In this document: positions 9,131 to 50,274 of the stretch, piece by piece
Position numbering within the stretch: position 1 is the first letter of the stretch
How the letters are laid out: each line of letters opens with the position of its first letter
Sequence record: PX667085.1
Source of the DNA: a phage
Strand: one strand, 5' to 3'
Length of the DNA: 64,000 bases
Translations under genes and position numbers: made by a program
The notes under the pieces: model-generated
Database searches by the model: none
What the model was told of the DNA's origin: nothing
What the model saw: the letters and a program-made list of their open reading frames with translations, nothing else

Positions 9131-11806
9131 TTAGTCGTAATATTTCAAACCTGTAATGAACTTCGATCCCCAATCCGCACTTGCGGCGGTGAACGTCAAC
9201 ATCCAAGTTGTAGCTGTACCAGTGAAGACCTCTCGTTGCACAGTACCATCAGTGTGGTAAATGTCCACGCCAGTATGTCCATTCTTAGGAATAGTGAAGG
9301 TAACAGCACTGGTAGTGTCTCGTGCATAAGAACAAACAAATGGTGTCCCCGCCCAAACTGGATTTGTCATATCACCCATCTCAAGCTGTGGAACCCAAGC
9401 AATAAGACCTGCCGTACCATCTCCTGCGAAAGTGTCTGATCCACTTGCATTCAAAGCTATAATCTCATAGGTTATAGATGCTTGTTTGGCAACTGTCACT
9501 TTGTGTAGAATTACACGATACCAACCGTTCCCCATATCGATTATGTTTGCATCTGCACCTGTAAATGTTCCAGCTACAAGATCATAAGTCCCTTCGTTAA
9601 TCTCATCTCCTGAAGTCAATTTGAGTTTCACTTTAGTGATCCCGTCTGGCTTCAAGAATACGGATGCCGCCCAGTGCTTACCTGCTGTAATATCAGAAGC
9701 TGTATTCACTGCTGATAAAATATGTTGTCCTGAAGTTGTAGAAGGTGTTAACTTGTAAGTGTTAGCCGTAGTTCCAACCGGAGAGTTGATTGTTGATGCT
9801 GTGACTGTCAAGTTCGTCTTCAACCACGGGGAAGCTGTTGTCAAGTTATTGTTGATAAAGATATGTGTACGGTTGGCTGCTACAACACGTCTACCTTGTG
9901 GAGTTGTACCAACATATTCTAAAGGTGCTACGGGAGCAGAACTCTCTGTAGGTACAAGGATATCTCCAGAAGCCCTGGCATAACGGTTACTCCTGTTGAC
10001 CTTTACATCCGCCGGAATAGTTTCTTGCGTCAAATCATAGTCCATCACAATGACCACAGCATTCACTGTGAGATAAGAACTATCTTCGGCAGTTACCACA
10101 CCTTGATAAGTTGCTCTACAACCGATACGACAACCTCCATCAGCAACCGCTGTAATAACGCCTGTAACGGGGTCAACTGTTGCTACCGTAGGGTCATTAG
10201 AGAAATACTCAACAACCATACCAGGTAAGCTTGCTGCTCCTGTTGGCGTTATTTCTGCTACCATTGTTTGTGTTGTTCCTACATCCATCGCAGATAAGCT
10301 AGGAGTGTAAACGCTCAATGTTGAAGCATATCCTCCAGAGGTATCTGATAAAGTTGTTCCTTCAGCGTTTAAGGCTGTCATACCTGCATCAAAACCACCT
10401 TCTGCATGGAAAGTCATTAAACCAGTAGATGATATTGTCATGTTTGCAGGGGCAGAAGAAGTGTATTTAATATTGAAAAGTTTACCTCCTTCTGGGCTAA
10501 CAGAATGTGTCAACTGTTTAGTTCCACCTACAATACAAATTCCTAAAGAATCTGTAGTTAAGCCAGTTGCCAGAATATCACCCGTAATCACGGAGCTTGC
10601 TATTGGTGTGAATTTATTATAGTTTAGACCACTATTGAACAGATACGAGGCTTTCCCATCTTTCCAAATACCGGAATAATACATATCCCCGTTATAAACG
10701 AAAAAGGTTCCTTGATAACCTAATTGGTTAGTAATATCCATATTCAGCGTATGAACGCTTGTGAGCTTGTTTATATCCCAGGAACCCACTCCTTCAGGTT
10801 TAACTGGTTTTCCCACTTGGAGTGGATCTCCGCTCGCAGAATCATACCCCAAACCTAAGTTTGCAGTGTAGTTCTTACCAATAGCCCACAAGGAATTGTT
10901 GATCCCAACGAAAAAAGAGTGGCGGTTTGGTGGAAATTTCCATGTTGAGAAACCTGCTGCAAAGGTATCCAGTTTAGTGTAGGTTGTTTCTGTATTAGAC
11001 CTGACATATAAGTAGTTTACCGTGCCCGTACCACCGGAGGTATCTCCTACAACTATTGTCTGGGAAACTGTATTGATGTAATCTTTGACATACACTGTTT
11101 CAGTAGCGGATATCGTGGCATTGACAAAAGCGGTTGTTGTGTTATTATTACCTGCTAAACCTTTACTAGCTCCACAAACACGCAAGGTTCCCACATTGTT
11201 GACATAAGAGCATTGGTTGTAACCTGCATCAAAAGCAACTGCTGAACTTGTTATCTGACGAGGAGTAGAAACTTCGTTAGTAGTGCTTGCACCTAAACTA
11301 CCTACTGTGTTTTGACCCGATCCATAAAGAACACCACTATTCATTAACCAGAGAGTATTGTTATACCCTCCTTTAACCTCTTTAAGATTGGCTAAAGAAA
11401 TAGTCCCTGTTATTACAGATGGAAAGCTGGTCCAAGTAGTTACACATGCATCCGTACCACCTGCTGCTATAGATCCTACCAACCCTGCTGTCAATCCTGA
11501 ATATTGCCATCCCCCACTGTTAGTTTTAATAACAAAACAACGATCTGCGGTAAACACATCCGCTACTACAGTAGAAGCTAAGTGGAAATTATTGAATCGT
11601 GCACTACGAGTTCCATCTGCAATCTCACCAAAGAGGTTTGCGCCTTGAGTAAACAATCTACCATCATTAAGCAAAATTGCCAAACTGCTGTTAGAATTAC
11701 CAGCGTTATCTGGGTAATCTAAAGTAATTACTTTTTTAACAATACCTGCTGGCAGAGGAACGACACCAGTGCTGGTCATAATAGTAAATATTGGAATTGG
11801 AAACAT
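9131..11806 (-). CDS. tail fibre / receptor-binding protein
   Basis: 891 aa, Gly/Thr/Ser/Asn-rich, last gene of minus-strand structural block; SD GGAGGG upstream. Confidence 0.5.
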   Translation of the reverse strand: MFPIPIFTIMTSTGVVPLPAGIVKKVITLDYPDNAGNSNSSLAILLNDGRLFTQGANLFGEIADGTRSARFNNFHLASTVVADVFTADRCFVIKTNSGGWQYSGLTAGLVGSIAAGGTDACVTTWTSFPSVITGTISLANLKEVKGGYNNTLWLMNSGVLYGSGQNTVGSLGASTTNEVSTPRQITSSAVAFDAGYNQCSYVNNVGTLRVCGASKGLAGNNNTTTAFVNATISATETVYVKDYINTVSQTIVVGDTSGGTGTVNYLYVRSNTETTYTKLDTFAAGFSTWKFPPNRHSFFVGINNSLWAIGKNYTANLGLGYDSASGDPLQVGKPVKPEGVGSWDINKLTSVHTLNMDITNQLGYQGTFFVYNGDMYYSGIWKDGKASYLFNSGLNYNKFTPIASSVITGDILATGLTTDSLGICIVGGTKQLTHSVSPEGGKLFNIKYTSSAPANMTISSTGLMTFHAEGGFDAGMTALNAEGTTLSDTSGGYASTLSVYTPSLSAMDVGTTQTMVAEITPTGAASLPGMVVEYFSNDPTVATVDPVTGVITAVADGGCRIGCRATYQGVVTAEDSSYLTVNAVVIVMDYDLTQETIPADVKVNRSNRYARASGDILVPTESSAPVAPLEYVGTTPQGRRVVAANRTHIFINNNLTTASPWLKTNLTVTASTINSPVGTTANTYKLTPSTTSGQHILSAVNTASDITAGKHWAASVFLKPDGITKVKLKLTSGDEINEGTYDLVAGTFTGADANIIDMGNGWYRVILHKVTVAKQASITYEIIALNASGSDTFAGDGTAGLIAWVPQLEMGDMTNPVWAGTPFVCSYARDTTSAVTFTIPKNGHTGVDIYHTDGTVQREVFTGTATTWMLTFTAASADWGSKFITGLKYYD

Positions 11807-39733: not shown

Positions 39734-40735
39734 TTAAGCCGTAGTCAGTTTAACTACCAGTTCTGGACGGGTGTTAACTGCGAGCAGCGAGAATTCAGAC
39801 TGAAGCTGAATAGTGCGGTGCTGGCTGATCATGAAGGTATACAGTTCACGAGCCTGGGTGTTAGCCAGTTCTGGAGTATCCGCAGGAGCGTAGTGCGCCT
39901 GGAACATACCTTCGATACCCATAGGCAGAACATATGCTTCACCAGCAGGGATGTTACCGTGGATATCTTCAATGTAAGTTACACCGTTCCATTCGAACAC
40001 CTGAACATCCATGTTACCGCTAAGGCGATCACGCAGAAGGTTAGGAGTTCCCTGGAAATACTGATATGCCTGGCGAACAAATGGAGAGTTAACCAGAGAT
40101 GCGAAAAATTCACGAGAACACAGAGCTACGATACGAGTAGCGGTAGAGCCATCTTGTTTAGTATCGATGATGTAAGCACGAGCTTCTTTCTCGATAGTGG
40201 CTGCTGGAGAAACAGTGGTAGAAGCAAAGTCTACAGCAACAGATTTCTGGGTAGCACCCCATTCGGTATACCAGTTGTATGCAGAGTTAGCTGCACCACC
40301 TACGCCGTTATAGGCACGACCCATAACTGCTTCTGCAAAGATTTTCTCTTTGGTTTTTGCTACGTCACGCAGAATCTGGGACATATAGCGGTTAACAACT
40401 TCAGCGTCTGTGCGCAGAGAGTCATTGATTCCTGCCATTGCAAAGCTACGGAAAGATTGAATATCTTGAGCTTTGATGTTTTTATCCAGAGGGAAGAACG
40501 GAATGCGGAACGCTTTCAGTTCTGGATTTTTCATGCTCAGGAAGTTACGCTCACCACCACGCTCACGAGCGGAGATCAGAGCATCTTCAGCTTTTTCTTT
40601 ACCGATTTCAATAGCGGTAGTTGAATGATAGTCAACACTGAACAGATTCAGGCTGGCAATCAGTGTATCAGGGGAATCCTGAAGTTCGATCATAGGGCTG
40701 AAATCTACAACCTGATCTAAAATTACTGCTGGCAT
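39734..40735 (-). CDS. major capsid protein (lambda gpE-like)
   Basis: 333 aa; position after decoration and scaffold genes; C-terminal LANTQARELYTF resembles lambda E LGNTQARGLRTY. Confidence 0.7.
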   Translation of the reverse strand: MPAVILDQVVDFSPMIELQDSPDTLIASLNLFSVDYHSTTAIEIGKEKAEDALISARERGGERNFLSMKNPELKAFRIPFFPLDKNIKAQDIQSFRSFAMAGINDSLRTDAEVVNRYMSQILRDVAKTKEKIFAEAVMGRAYNGVGGAANSAYNWYTEWGATQKSVAVDFASTTVSPAATIEKEARAYIIDTKQDGSTATRIVALCSREFFASLVNSPFVRQAYQYFQGTPNLLRDRLSGNMDVQVFEWNGVTYIEDIHGNIPAGEAYVLPMGIEGMFQAHYAPADTPELANTQARELYTFMISQHRTIQLQSEFSLLAVNTRPELVVKLTTA

Positions 40736-47967: not shown

Positions 47968-47995
47968 ATAGCAAAAAGCCTCCAATAAGGAGGCT
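47968..47995 (-). terminator. terminator at downstream end of tRNA array
   Basis: AGCCTCC-AATAA-GGAGGCT hairpin followed on minus strand by TTTTTGCTAT. Confidence 0.5.
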
Positions 47996-48110
47996 AATAA
48001 ATACTGTTAATTTGAAATGCTTTATTATAATTGTGCGTTAAGGAGTCGCACCCCTCCATCTTAGAAGGAACCAGGCAAGGTCTTCAAAGATACCGCTGGC
48101 AAGCGATATT

Positions 48111-48189
48111 TGGAGGCGGGAATTGGATTTGAACCAATGATCTCCAGCATATGAAACTGGCGAGGACGACCAGACTCCTCTATCCCGCT
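48111..48189 (-). tRNA. tRNA-Met (anticodon CAT)
   Basis: CCA encoded; T-arm ATTGG-ATTTGAA-CCAAT; anticodon loop TTCATAT; 11-nt D-loop; A1-C72 mismatch. Confidence 0.55.
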
Positions 48190-48195
48190 ATTAGG

Positions 48196-48265
48196 TATCC
48201 CGTGCTGGATTCGAACCAGCATCACAATAAGTTGTGGAACTCTTATCCTGTAAGTCTAACGGGAA
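48196..48265 (-). tRNA. tRNA-like element, possibly degenerate
   Basis: clean T-arm GCTGG-ATTCGAA-CCAGC and 6-bp acceptor, but only 70 nt, no CCA, anticodon arm would need a 10-nt loop. Confidence 0.3.
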
Positions 48266-48267
48266 AT

Positions 48268-48341
48268 TGGTTGTTTCGACAAGAATCGAACTTGTGTCTC
48301 ACGATTATCAGTCGTGGGTTCTACCATTGAACTACGAAACA
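48268..48341 (-). tRNA. tRNA-Ile (anticodon GAT)
   Basis: CCA encoded; 7-bp acceptor; T-arm; anticodon stem CACGA/TCGTG with loop CTGATAA. Confidence 0.7.
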
Positions 48342-48347
48342 TTAAAT

Positions 48348-48424
48348 TGGTCGGAATTGCAGGATTCGAACCTGCGACCCTACGCTCCCAAAGCGTATGC
48401 TCTACCAAACTGAGCTAAATTCCG
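48348..48424 (-). tRNA. tRNA-Pro (anticodon TGG)
   Basis: CCA encoded; 7-bp acceptor; T-arm GCAGG-ATTCGAA-CCTGC; anticodon loop TTTGGGA. Confidence 0.7.
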
Positions 48425-48429
48425 TTATA

Positions 48430-48505
48430 TGGCTGGTCTGTCTGGATTTGAACCAAACCTACGACAGTCAAAGTGTCGTGTGCTACCTGACTACACTACA
48501 AACCA
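48430..48505 (-). tRNA. tRNA-Gln (anticodon TTG)
   Basis: CCA encoded; acceptor with one G-U pair; anticodon stem CGACA/TGTCG with loop CTTTGAC. Confidence 0.6.
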
Positions 48506-48603
48506 ATAAATCATTTAATGAAGGGCAACCAGAAGAGGTGTGAGAGAAGGAGAAAACCATGAGTAAAAGAGAAAGTTTTCTGGCAACCCTTTATTAAATA
48601 ATT

Positions 48604-48677
48604 TGGAGCGTTCTACGAGGATCGAACTCGTGCCGCCGACTTGGAAGGACGGAATGCTACCGCTACACCAAGAACGC
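48604..48677 (-). tRNA. tRNA-Gly (anticodon TCC)
   Basis: CCA encoded; perfect acceptor and T-arm ACGAG-GATCGAA-CTCGT; anticodon loop CTTCCAA; one U-U mismatch in anticodon stem. Confidence 0.55.
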
Positions 48678-48688
48678 CCTACCTCTTT

Positions 48689-48718
48689 ACTATACTACAT
48701 TTTACTATTGGTTGTCAA
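48689..48718 (-). promoter_or_regulatory. tRNA-unit promoter 1 (AACTATTGACAA motif, -10 TATAGT)
   Basis: minus-strand TTGACA at plus 48713-48718, TATAGT 18 nt downstream; directly precedes tRNA-Gly. Confidence 0.45.
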
Positions 48719-48993
48719 TAGTTTTATTGAGTGGGACAGTGACGAGTATCCCATTGGGTGACTAGCCCTACGTTCGGTAAGCTAACTTAAAATAATACAA
48801 AACCAAAGTCAAATATTATTCTTCGTTGCTGTCGATGGGAGAGCCGCTTCTTCTTTTGCCCCATCCAACCCTACTCCGGTCAAGTTTCAGGTAACTCTTT
48901 TTGTGTGATCAACACAATACTAAGAACACTGTCTTTCGAACAGACCTTGTGCACAGGATACGACGATCAATCACAGTGCTCTTAATGTTGTGT

Positions 48994-49068
48994 TGGTGCT
49001 CCCACTCTGAATCGAACAGAGATCCACGGATTACAAAACCGTTGTAATAGCCATTATACTATAGGAGC
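48994..49068 (-). tRNA. tRNA-Thr (anticodon TGT)
   Basis: CCA encoded; T-arm CTCTG-AATCGAA-CAGAG; anticodon loop TTTGTAA. Confidence 0.6.
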
Positions 49069-49074
49069 AAAGCT

Positions 49075-49151
49075 GGGACTCGGCAGGATTCGATACCTGC
49101 AATTCCAGAAGCCTCTTGGCGACTGGGGGTTTACCTTAACTCTACAAGTCC
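49075..49151 (-). tRNA. tRNA-like element with atypical 8-nt T-loop, anticodon unresolved
   Basis: acceptor pairs (6 bp plus one G-U) and T-stem GCAGG/CCTGC present, but T-loop is TATCGAAT and no 5-7-5 anticodon arm found; no CCA. Confidence 0.3.
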
Positions 49152-49158
49152 ATAATTC

Positions 49159-49244
49159 TGGCGATGAGTATAGGATTTGAACCTATATCGTTCTTTCGAA
49201 CACGGATTAACAGTCCGCCGCTTAAACCATTCAGCCAACTCATC
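49159..49244 (-). tRNA. tRNA-Asn (anticodon GTT) with extended 15-nt variable arm
   Basis: CCA and G73; perfect acceptor; anticodon arm GCGGA-CTGTTAA-TCCGT; extra hairpin GTTC-GAAA-GAAC before T-arm; 86 nt. Confidence 0.5.
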
Positions 49245-49250
49245 TTAATT

Positions 49251-49338
49251 TGGTGGTGAGTGATGGAGTCGAACCACCCGAATCGCAATGATAACAGATT
49301 TACAGTCTGCCCCGCTACCCCTACGGAATTAACTCACC
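49251..49338 (-). tRNA. tRNA-Tyr (anticodon GTA), class II
   Basis: CCA, A73, perfect acceptor; anticodon arm CAGACTGTAAATCTG; long variable arm; 88 nt. Confidence 0.7.
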
Positions 49339-49468
49339 TAAATACTAATATTTAAATTCTTTTTAAAATAGCCAGTGTTCACACCACTAACTATGAGTTA
49401 TCGGTAAGATGGTGGAGGCCATCTGCCGAAAGTTTACTCTATTAAAGTAAGCTATATTAAAAAGAACT

Positions 49469-49554
49469 TGGCGGTAGATGTAGGACTCGAACCTACACGC
49501 CGTTTCCGACTACAGTTTAGCAAACTGTCGTGGCTACCATTTCACCAATCTACC
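49469..49554 (-). tRNA. tRNA-Ser (anticodon GCT), class II
   Basis: CCA, G73, perfect acceptor; anticodon stem ACAGT/ACTGT with loop TTGCTAA; long variable arm. Confidence 0.7.
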
Positions 49555-49558
49555 AATC

Positions 49559-49649
49559 TGGCGGAAGGAGGGAGAGTCGAACTCCCAAGGCTCTTTCAAG
49601 CTCGGCGGTTTTCAAGACCGTTTTCGTCGCCACGTCGATTTGCCCTTCC
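49559..49649 (-). tRNA. tRNA-Ser (anticodon TGA), class II
   Basis: CCA, G73; anticodon region CGGTCTTGAAAACCG; long variable arm; exact 5' boundary uncertain. Confidence 0.55.
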
Positions 49650-49657
49650 ATACTTAT

Positions 49658-49687
49658 AATCTAACATAAAATAATGTTAGTTGTCAA
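49658..49687 (-). promoter_or_regulatory. tRNA-unit promoter 2 (AACTATTGACAA motif)
   Basis: minus-strand TTGACA at plus 49682-49687, -10 candidate TAGATT; directly precedes tRNA-Ser(TGA). Confidence 0.4.
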
Positions 49688-49883
49688 TAGTTTTTTAAAA
49701 CATTTTACCATGAATGGTGACTCCACCAACCCCCGTTCTCAACGAACGGTGCTCTTCGAGCATTTATGTCTTCTAATATAACCGTGGCCTTTGTTTATAA
49801 TGTCTGACATACTTGCCTCATTCTCTGCCACCATGATCAGTAGTGGGTTCAAATCACTTGAGCTAATTCATGTTAAAATGTTC

Positions 49884-49958
49884 TGGTGTCTTTACAAGGA
49901 ATCGAACCTTGACTAAGAGTTTAGAAGACTCCTGTGCTATCCATTACACCATAAAGAC
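49884..49958 (-). tRNA. tRNA-Arg (anticodon TCT)
   Basis: CCA, perfect acceptor, T-arm CAAGG-AATCGAA-CCTTG; anticodon loop CTTCTAA. Confidence 0.7.
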
Positions 49959-49960
49959 GT

Positions 49961-50035
49961 TGGTGGCCCTGGCTGGTTTCGATCCAGCTACCTATCGGTT
50001 ATGAGCCGACAGCTCTCCCATTGAGCTACAGGGCC
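49961..50035 (-). tRNA. tRNA with anticodon CAT (Met or lysidine-type Ile)
   Basis: CCA, perfect acceptor; anticodon loop CTCATAA; T-loop reads ATCGAAA (A at position 54). Confidence 0.6.
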
Positions 50036-50244
50036 ATAAATGTGGTAACAGAGACGCTGACTATTGTAGAGAACCGCTACATTCTCTAAGACCAAGCCCA
50101 ACTTTCAGCGTAAAAGTTCTTGAGCCGAGATTATTCCTTTTCCTCTTTGGTAGCTAACCTCTGAAGAAGTAGTCTCTAACACTACCGCAGTGCAAGCCCA
50201 TCTTAACAAAAGTCAACGACCCTCTTACCACACTTGATGAACGT

Positions 50245-50274
50245 ATCCTAACATATGAAGGATACGTTTGTCAA
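50245..50274 (-). promoter_or_regulatory. tRNA-unit promoter 3 (AACTATTGACAA motif)
   Basis: minus-strand TTGACA at plus 50269-50274, -10 candidate TAGGAT; adjacent inverted repeat ACGTATCCT...AGGATACGT. Confidence 0.4.

Follow-up and report, generated by a model that had tools for sequence, protein, structure and literature searches.

What does a phage tRNA array carry besides tRNAs? The question was raised by a 64-kb stretch of phage DNA (PX667085.1, 64,000 nt; hereafter the window), in which a tRNA array on the minus strand is interrupted by long spacers. The 3.3 kb around the array were 99.7% identical to Escherichia phage Mt1B1_P17 with unchanged gene order, and the next-best 24 records listed were at least 98.5% identical to this region. 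Sixty-four phage records covered at least 80% of the array query in one place, and tRNAs were annotated there; IMG/VR contained only 8 related loci. By this similarity, window positions 47968–50274 (minus strand) are the tRNA operon of a Phapecoctavirus, a genus that belongs to the subfamily Stephanstirmvirinae and comprises phAPEC8-like virulent E. coli myophages with genomes of about 150 kb. Public Phapecoctavirus annotation already has 10–12 tRNAs at the position of the array. The tRNA array itself is real, ordinary and already known, being annotated in dozens of GenBank records. What is new here is the set of unannotated RNA modules, above all the abi-antisense core of one spacer RNA, which we named sp2. 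The whole explanation developed below, a Phapecoctavirus tRNA operon with codon-supplying tRNAs, further RNA modules and sp2 as an antisense RNA acting against abortive infection (Abi), appears to us probable.

sp2 has a conserved four-way junction structure

The RNA and its core were located as follows.
49354–49468, minus strand: sp2, a four-way junction made of closing stem P1 and hairpins P2–P4, just upstream of the tRNA-Tyr gene
49399–49451, minus strand: core of sp2 (P2 and P3), with antisense identity to the 3′ end of ColIb-type abi

sp2 is 115 nt long. Across 12 different sequences, drawn from four genera or groups of phages, 98.4% of cells were paired and 8 pairs showed compensatory changes. 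None of 500 shuffles was as good, and slid controls were only 38–53% paired. Several G·U pairs are valid on the tRNA-sense strand only. No Rfam match to sp2 was found. Three unrelated groups of phages, with 176 records between them, carried the element, and none of these records annotates it. Its carriers were Phapecoctavirus, Justusliebigvirus, Vequintavirus, Certrevirus and about 27 T5-like siphophages. In the T5-like phages (Spc35, HildyBeyeler and about 25 others), sp2 is preceded by an extended −10 promoter and directly followed by tRNA-Tyr; most T5-like phages keep the promoter and do not have sp2. No sigma-70 promoter was found inside sp2, and in Spc35 the promoter is upstream of it.

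The sp2 core is antisense to plasmid-borne abi

When 5426 complete E. coli genomes were searched with sp2, 37 were matched. Every match was on a plasmid, with identity over the P2–P3 core of up to 53/53 nt. The window core was 53/53 nt identical to plasmid pTB201 and 52/53 nt identical to pRK1 of E. coli W. On both plasmids, the matching segment lies opposite a 114-aa open reading frame (ORF), over its last 16 codons and the stop codon. The predicted duplex between the sp2 core and this mRNA has 53 bp and a free energy of −97.7 kcal/mol.

The 114-aa ORF has a good ribosome-binding site and encodes a hydrophobic stretch, and its family comprises at least 110 clusters in Enterobacteriaceae. The family name, abortive infection protein, comes from the Swiss-Prot entry ABI_ECOLX. 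The only model matching the protein was a weak PADLOC 2TM effector (E = 0.006); other toxin–antitoxin (TA) and PADLOC models, Pfam and NCBIfam gave none. ColIb aborts infection by T5 and BF23 with loss of membrane potential, and a 2023 paper describes the ibf/abi products and mechanism as unsolved (PMC10644984). The conserved neighbourhood consists of a 308-aa gene, an 84-aa gene, abi and then a DUF4238 gene that is convergent with abi in every case. On pTB201 (L039 1–865 and 4811–5053), abi also adjoins genes of a SMODS nucleotidyltransferase and a HEPN nuclease, a defence-island-like setting.

The gap after abi contained a promoter-like TTGACA–17 nt–TAGnnT motif aimed back across abi in 5/5 alleles examined. 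The predicted start of this plasmid antisense motif is the first base of the phage identity. An alike abi/antisense arrangement was present in one species-representative genome, that of Scandinavium lactucae. A literature search for an antisense RNA at ColIb abi returned nothing relevant.

Different phages matched different abi alleles. Translated in reverse complement, the phage sp2 variants gave natural Abi C-termini: KMVEAICRKFTLLK in the window, KVVTATCRRFTLLK in ASO2A, KMAATICRKFTLLK in cardinal and …RKITPSN in Vequintavirus. The sp2 of ASO2A was identical (53/53 nt) to the KVVTATC allele and only 86% identical, over 28 nt, to the pRK1 allele. Cardinal matched the KMAATIC allele (96.4%), L013 the KVVTATC allele (96.6%) and Vequintavirus A7_1 the RKITPSN allele (97.6%). 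Phage ESCO32 has two tandem sp2 modules, which matched two abi alleles at 98.2% and 92%. Because different phages match different alleles, the covariation in P3 is also present within the abi genes themselves, as is expected for a stem-loop that would serve as the target of an antisense RNA. The identity and orientation of the sequences, the way in which the phages track alleles and the conservation of the phage scaffold are shown.

Proposed function of sp2

From these features we infer that sp2 would act as an antisense anti-Abi RNA. Host RNA polymerase probably starts at three strong sigma-70-type promoters in the operon and reads on to a single terminator. Host RNase P and 3′-processing enzymes would free the 12 tRNAs, and from the same processing the two tRNA-like RNAs, A and B, and the five stem-closed spacers would also emerge. 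sp2 would be excised from the precursor as tRNA-Ser and tRNA-Tyr are processed. The plasmid abi would be a type-I-toxin-like module, in which a labile antisense RNA, transcribed convergently, keeps a small membrane protein in check. Once the phage shuts off transcription in the host, abi would be set free. The scaffolded antisense copy of the phage, displayed in two exposed sp2 hairpins, would keep abi silent, and abortive infection would be avoided. The broader claim, that phage tRNA operons carry processed "passenger" anti-defence RNAs with sp2 as an allele-matched antisense RNA against ColIb-type abi, is in our judgment evenly poised.

Several points weigh against this function. A matching abi allele was present in only the 37 of 5426 complete E. 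coli genomes. The 114-aa family is tied to ColIb ibf/abi via an old Swiss-Prot entry of 89 aa, to which the query is 82% identical over 62% of its length. The −10 hexamer of the plasmid antisense motif agrees with the consensus at only 3/6 positions, and a terminator for the putative plasmid antisense RNA was not found. Finally, sp2 is optional in T5-like phages (about 27 records; most relatives keep the upstream promoter only), and it could be a selfish element.

The last point leads to the main alternative, in which recombination left the likeness of sp2 to abi as a scar, or in which sp2 is a selfish stem-flanked module that hops between plasmids and phage tRNA regions and has no anti-defence role. 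Besides its patchy occurrence in T5-like phages, the terminal stems of sp2 look like terminal inverted repeats, and other stem-closed modules come and go in related arrays, for example the 93-nt module found between Gln and Pro, and the inserts of about 330 nt that L012 and L013 carry. Against an accidental or selfish origin, the abi-derived segment has the same orientation in every phage examined (antisense to abi, on the tRNA-sense strand) and begins at one common base. It sits in a phage-specific scaffold, stems P1 and P4, with compensatory changes and strand-specific G·U pairs. The plasmid copy has neither P1 nor P4, so it is not the same mobile unit. At least four abi alleles were matched at 96–100% by different phages, one of which carries a tandem pair, and this points to repeated allele-specific exchange. 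The uniform orientation, the shared first base, the scaffold peculiar to the phages and the recurrent matching of particular alleles all count against selfish or accidental insertion, and we consider it improbable. T5 and BF23, which are classically aborted by ColIb, were not among the 31 records with a Spc35-type element; this fits the anti-Abi function and is weak evidence.

If sp2 silences abi as proposed, abi would be a type-I-toxin-like membrane killer under the control of a 3′-overlapping antisense RNA, which would give a first mechanistic handle on ColIb abortive infection, on the side of both the toxin and its regulation. The phAPEC8-, phi92- and rV5-like myophages and some T5-like siphophages would escape abi by means of a scaffolded RNA beside tRNA-Tyr. 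Phages and plasmids would be evolving against each other allele by allele, an arms race in which no fewer than four alleles are matched and a single phage has a tandem pair. A type-I-like case would join the single known example of phage RNA antitoxin mimicry, and the "spacers" of phage tRNA arrays would be a place to seek anti-defence RNAs. The matter is relevant to phage therapy, as IncI-type and related abi-carrying plasmids are common in Enterobacteriaceae.

Other spacers, the leader and the trailer

The preliminary description of the window had treated the spacers of the array as empty. They were instead found to be conserved structured modules. Besides sp2, the following were delimited.
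50036–50240, minus strand: leader of about 200 nt with a closing stem of about 23 bp
49692–49883, minus strand: spacer sp1, a self-closing module
48912–48993, minus strand: first hairpin module of spacer sp3, with a stem of about 20 bp, found by folding
48506–48603, minus strand: spacer sp4, with a closing stem of about 25 bp and an invariant CU-rich loop (…CUCAUGGUUUUCUCCUUC…)
47996–48110, minus strand: 3′ trailer

Each window spacer of at least 90 nt is a self-contained fold, the 5′ and 3′ ends of which pair with each other in a stem of 12–25 bp. The same stem-closed design was found again in all related arrays. For the leader (z = −4.3) and sp1 (z = −4.4), none of 200 shuffles folded as well. 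The first ~75 nt of the trailer are about 90% conserved throughout the subfamily, and they stay conserved even where the preceding tRNA differs. The trailer also gave a weak Rfam RyhB match (29 bits, E = 0.012) over an AU-rich stretch and the terminator. No ORF proved to be conserved in the spacers. The small ones seen in the leader, in sp1 and in sp3 were rejected as coding, since they contain frameshifts and stops in the 80–83% identical relative L010, and conservation runs past the ORFs.

In sp4, 10 pairs showed compensatory changes across Stephanstirmvirinae, and the spacer was 100% identical in L010. Its invariant loop is the exact complement of a perfect Shine-Dalgarno sequence and ATG (GAAGGAGAAAACCATGAG), followed by codons for MS(E)KR. 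The loop could be antisense to the translation start of some gene, or the antisense strand could hold a tiny ORF. The only other match in the window was a generic ribosome-binding site; no match was found in E. coli genomes, and no exact match in species-representative bacterial genomes. The first module of sp3 matched unannotated stretches of 11 E. coli chromosomes (80–86% over 60–85 nt), and a host counterpart may exist for this spacer too.

The modules differ among arrays. A 93-nt stem-closed module lies between Gln and Pro in ASO2A (L002 2426–2518) and L010 (3721–3813). The window does not have it, and 5 nt separate Gln from Pro there. Between Gly and Gln, another insertion, of about 330 nt, is found in L012 and L013. 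From these comparisons, arrays evidently gain and lose stem-closed modules.

tRNA-like elements A and B

Two elements of the array resemble tRNAs and would not decode.
48190–48267, minus strand: tRNA-like element A, a cloverleaf with an anticodon arm of 5 bp and a 4-nt loop, without CCA
49069–49158, minus strand: tRNA-like element B, with a 7-bp acceptor, a closed anticodon hairpin and an 8-nt T loop (UAUCGAAU), without CCA

Both were recognized by folding. Neither was detected by ARAGORN or Rfam, even at E ≤ 1, and a 7-nt anticodon loop is absent from both. Element A derives from a phage tRNA-Val lineage, with 78% identity to the tRNA-Val of phiEB49. A derivation from a Klebsiella-type Val-TAC gene was rejected, as that gene is unrelated and the kin of A is the phiEB49-type tRNA-Val. 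Element B is located between Asn and Thr, and its anticodon arm is an extended hairpin with a tetraloop. A pattern search of metagenome contigs for more B-type elements gave no matches, and a literature search on tRNA-like elements in such phages returned nothing relevant.

The elements might be decaying tRNA pseudogenes without function. The clear tRNA-Val descent of A, the lack of a 7-nt anticodon loop and of an encoded CCA in both, the variation of the A loop within the genus in sequence and length (4 nt, and 3 nt in ECML-183-2) and the loosely kept D stem of A all speak for decay. Other observations speak against decay. In Justusliebigvirus, a second B type at the equivalent site has another closed anticodon hairpin. 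The two B types, a comparison of two lineages only, differ by four compensatory double changes across the acceptor, anticodon and T stems, and both keep the odd 8-nt T loop. In Vequintavirinae, element A has a 7-bp stem and a 3-nt loop, with 2 compensatory changes in the acceptor and T stems relative to the Phapecoctavirus A (again two lineages only). Compensatory double changes thus keep the acceptor and T stems, and the closed anticodon hairpin was rebuilt by a different sequence in each lineage. In L010, a mosaic relative, B (97.8%) and A (97.4%) are conserved, whereas the Thr gene flanking B is only 81% identical and nearby tRNAs are 78–81% identical or replaced. This evidence modestly favours A and B as structured non-decoding RNAs over plain pseudogenes; the pseudogene explanation is a real possibility that we regard as somewhat doubtful.

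Rfam matches to YrlA, RyhB and mascRNA were rejected as identifications, being far under the gathering scores and located on tRNAs or the terminator. The YrlA match in the window (22.8 bits, gathering score 69) lies over real tRNAs and not over A or B. In L015, positions 114–229 upstream of a Klebsiella-type array gave a sub-threshold YrlA match (42 bits, E = 4e-7, gathering score 69), and the window has no equivalent of this segment.

The tRNA genes

The window was analyzed with ARAGORN and the Rfam tRNA model (RF00005), and tRNAscan-SE calls were taken from the ASO2A record. The genes are listed below in the order of transcription.
49961–50035, minus strand: tRNA with anticodon CAT, Ile2-like (ARAGORN, Rfam; Ile-CAT by tRNAscan-SE in ASO2A)
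49884–49958, minus strand: tRNA-Arg (TCT) (ARAGORN, Rfam)
49555–49649, minus strand: tRNA-Ser (TGA), class II, with C8 (sub-threshold tRNA-Sec match; tRNAscan-SE in ASO2A; structure read by hand)
49469–49554, minus strand: tRNA-Ser (GCT) (ARAGORN, Rfam)
49245–49338, minus strand: tRNA-Tyr (GTA) (Rfam, 39 bits; tRNAscan-SE in ASO2A)
49159–49244, minus strand: tRNA-Asn (GTT) (ARAGORN, Rfam)
48994–49068, minus strand: tRNA-Thr (TGT) (ARAGORN, Rfam)
48604–48677, minus strand: tRNA-Gly (TCC) with a U30×U40 mismatch (ARAGORN, Rfam; direct reading)
48430–48505, minus strand: tRNA-Gln (TTG) (ARAGORN, Rfam)
48348–48424, minus strand: tRNA-Pro (TGG) (ARAGORN, Rfam)
48268–48341, minus strand: tRNA-Ile (GAT) (ARAGORN, Rfam)
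48111–48189, minus strand: initiator-like tRNA with anticodon CAT (ARAGORN, Rfam, structure reading)

ARAGORN found 10 tRNAs on the minus strand: Met-CAT, Ile-GAT, Pro-TGG, Gln-TTG, Gly-TCC, Thr-TGT, Asn-GTT, Ser-GCT, Arg-TCT and a second CAT. The Rfam model gave 11 matches of 39–72 bits (gathering score 29) and added Tyr-GTA, which had 39 bits. Ser-TGA appeared in Rfam only as a sub-threshold tRNA-Sec match (37.4 bits). The Ser-TGA and Tyr genes of ASO2A are 100% identical to those of the window and are named Ser-TGA and Tyr-GTA by tRNAscan-SE. Twelve of the 14 array elements are tRNA genes, and the other two are the non-decoding tRNA-like RNAs A and B.

The preliminary description had counted 14 minus-strand tRNA or tRNA-like genes, and the same total was reached here from the 12 tRNAs and the two undecoding cloverleaves. 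All 12 anticodons that it had read from the loops were returned exactly, with ARAGORN coordinates in agreement, and the programs neither rejected most of the genes nor gave other anticodons. Direct reading of the sequence bore out its statement that 12 genes encode CCA; the two without CCA are A and B. The oddities that it had pointed out are also real, namely the U-U pair in the anticodon stem of tRNA-Gly (U30×U40), the A1×C72 mismatch in the CAT tRNA at 48111–48189 and A54 in the T loop (AUCGAAA) of the CAT tRNA at 49961–50035.

Flanking proteins belonged to PHROGs without assigned function, save one Rz-like spanin, and none was tRNA-related. Some related arrays (L003 3361–3506, L015 3419–3513, L019 4579–4662, L007 ~2585–2670) contain a gene resembling tRNA-Trp(CCA), which has CUCCAAA as its anticodon loop, ends in G73-CCA and has an aberrant D arm. 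This gene was missed by ARAGORN and public annotation and is absent from the window. In L010, a divergent Phapecoctavirus, a 42-codon ORF with a strong ribosome-binding site (MLFDNWFDLEKV…) occupies the place of the Asn tRNA (2845–2994).

The two CAT tRNAs

The 5′ CAT tRNA (49961–50035) was 76.3% identical to E. coli ileX and 66–69% identical to Met tRNAs. It contains the TilS determinants C4:G69 and C5:G68, and its ASO2A counterpart is labeled Ile-CAT by tRNAscan-SE. It is an Ile2-like tRNA and the likely decoder of ATA, which it would read after lysidine modification. ATA is the most phage-enriched codon, which fits this assignment. Its AUCGAAA T loop (A54, A60) is kept in L010 and is odd for a bacterial-type elongator; this T loop is typical of eukaryotic initiator tRNAs.

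The closest host tRNA to the 3′ CAT tRNA (48111–48189) was metZ (68%, against 58–61% for others), with which it shares the GCGGG acceptor, A11:U24 and the UUCAAAU T loop. Next to the A1×C72 mismatch it has G2:C71, C3:G70 and G4:C69, which are formylase determinants, as well as A11:U24. In 8 related arrays across the subfamily, N1 was A, C or U and C72 was fixed; the 1×72 mismatch itself is conserved, because N1 varies and yet always faces C72. More distant relatives have U×C, C×U or a weak A-U or U-A pair at 1:72, and never G:C. The tRNA departs from bacterial initiators in its anticodon stem (A29-U41, G30-C40 and U31·G39, only one G:C) and in its discriminator, U73 instead of A73. As the three anticodon-stem G:C pairs are missing and U73 is present, we call it initiator-like only: by these determinants it is an initiator-like variant and not a full member of the initiator class. 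It is the best conserved tRNA of the array (91–97% between genera). Relatives with 75–83% identity were found in Erwinia, Aeromonas, Caulobacter, cyanobacterial and Streptomyces phages, and one of them is annotated as tRNA-fMet.

Codon usage and the role of the tRNAs

Codon usage of 61 long ORFs in the window was compared with that of E. coli K-12 genes (17 ordinary genes and 29 ribosomal or elongation-factor genes). The five most phage-enriched codons were ATA (5.4×), AGA (5.2×), ACA (5.0×), CCT (4.0×) and GGA (3.3×). Four of them have direct cognates in the array, the tRNAs with anticodons CAT (Ile2), TCT, TGT and TCC, respectively, and CCT is served by Pro-TGG via wobble. By a hypergeometric estimate, the chance of finding at least 4 of the top 5 codons among 12 cognates out of 61 is about 0.004. 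ATA, AGA, ACA and GGA together occur 80–120 times per 1000 codons in the large-gene block at 9131–34303, versus about 15 in ordinary E. coli genes. Use across the window is very uneven, with about 12 per 1000 in the 332-codon ORF at 39734–40735. The large-gene block at 9–34 kb is taken to be tail genes. The preliminary description had proposed to compare the anticodon set with the codon usage of late genes, and in that comparison the cognate codons peaked in these putative tail genes.

Codon supplementation, mainly for late structural genes, is well supported, because the enriched codons match the array tRNAs and peak in the tail-gene block. The rV5 paper also read the rV5 tRNAs as codon compensation (PMC3606486), and the present array is one more clean example. 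A point against it is that the array also holds tRNAs for only modestly enriched codons (Tyr, Asn, Gln and Ile-GAT).

Such tRNAs might instead serve mainly as anti-defence spares that replace host tRNAs depleted or cleaved during infection. Candidate attackers are anticodon nucleases, retron-Eco7 PtuAB, PARIS, PrrC, VapC and colicin-like enzymes. There are precedents, as tRNA-Tyr of T5-like phages rescues from retron-Eco7 and a phage tRNA-Lys rescues from PrrC (PMC11555353), and a hypothesis of anticodon-loop mutation in phage tRNAs has been set out (PMC10264068). The array includes Tyr and Asn, which are colicin E5-type targets, and Arg-UCU, of the colicin D type. Relative to the host counterparts, the initiator-like tRNA differs from tRNA-fMet at 32, 38 and 39, around the reported VapC cleavage site, Gln differs at 32 and 38, and Thr at 32. 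But the anticodon loops support this role only to a limited degree, as they equal those of E. coli in 5/8 tRNAs compared (Tyr, Gly, Arg, Pro and Ile2), and the top five phage-enriched codons are exactly those that the array tRNAs serve. Replacement of host tRNAs as the main purpose seems unlikely to us, and the two roles are not mutually exclusive.

Promoters and terminator

Three promoter-like sites and one terminator were located.
50245–50274, minus strand: promoter-like site P1, TTGACA–18 nt–TAGGAT, with TG before the −10 hexamer and ACTATTGACAA upstream
49658–49687, minus strand: promoter-like site P2, TTGACA–18 nt–TAGATT
48689–48718, minus strand: promoter-like site P3, TTGACA–18 nt–TATAGT (11/12 consensus)
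47968–47995, minus strand: intrinsic terminator, a 7-bp stem (47995–47977; 5 G:C) followed by a T run, annotated as a terminator in ASO2A

The three putative promoters match the sigma-70 hexamers at 10–11 of 12 positions, with a perfect TTGACA and 18-nt spacing. The predicted starts of sites P2 and P3 are about 2 nt before tRNA-Ser and about 5 nt before tRNA-Gly, and site P1 precedes the ~200-nt leader. A point against them as promoters is that promoter-like sites overall were not enriched over shuffles (6 seen, 6.5 expected). Because the site count is not above that of shuffles, the case rests on the shared extended motif and on conservation: the 11-mer ACTATTGACAA is common to the three sites and has no further exact copy in the 64-kb window, and the sites are kept in L010, which is only about 80% identical in the surrounding spacers.

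The array had been described as three promoter-headed units followed by a hairpin terminator. The promoter-like motifs at the unit heads and the terminator after the array were both found again. The units are not separated by terminators, as none was found between them inside the array; therefore, the three promoters probably feed one read-through operon.

Comparison with known systems

The public clusters of Phapecoctavirus, Justusliebigvirus and rV5-like phages (phAPEC8, Mt1B1_P17, ASO2A and rV5) are like the window in genes, order and strand, with 95–99.7% identity. There is no difference in the tRNA genes; the tRNA-like elements and spacer RNAs are left unannotated there.

Non-tRNA products are known from another phage tRNA operon. 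The T4 tRNA cluster also yields the stable RNAs RNAC and RNAD, of unassigned function (PMC9697503). The T4 RNAs have no sequence kinship to the present modules, and here one module has an identifiable target-like counterpart, abi. Elements A and B can be compared with the Y-RNA-like module of YrlA and with mascRNA, which are tRNA-like non-decoding RNAs (PMC4201824). Like these, A and B keep the acceptor and T arms and have a shortened or closed anticodon arm. They differ in their Rfam results: the YrlA and mascRNA models stay well short of their gathering scores and hit real tRNAs, not A or B.

The tRNA-Tyr of phages is an established anti-defence factor, and a leader RNA is not described in that work (PMC11555353). 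The T5-like tRNA-Tyr unit, which acts against retron-Eco7, resembles the present array in that sp2 also directly precedes tRNA-Tyr in about 27 T5-like phages; it differs in that sp2 is missing from most T5-like phages. A literature search on T5 small RNAs returned nothing relevant.

On the plasmid side, type I TA modules with convergent, 3′-overlapping antisense RNAs are known, such as txpA/RatA and bsrG/SR4. The abi locus resembles them in having a small ORF with a hydrophobic stretch and, on the opposite strand, a promoter-like motif aimed across the 3′ end of that ORF. It differs in that here both an antisense RNA made by the plasmid and a toxic effect of Abi are predictions.

The closest precedent is pseudo-ToxI of Pectobacterium phage PhiTE, an RNA mimic of a type III antitoxin that lets the phage escape abortive infection (PMC3475682). 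There are two differences. ToxI binds the ToxN protein, whereas sp2 would base-pair with the toxin mRNA, and sp2 is embedded in a tRNA operon within a structured scaffold. PhiTE is a virulent rV5-like myophage with an RNA copy of the RNA antitoxin of a plasmid-borne Abi system, and sp2 would be such a copy too. As in an antitoxin RNA mimic, the phage RNA has the sequence of the putative defence-side RNA, at 53/53 nt in the window and at 96–100%, allele by allele, elsewhere.

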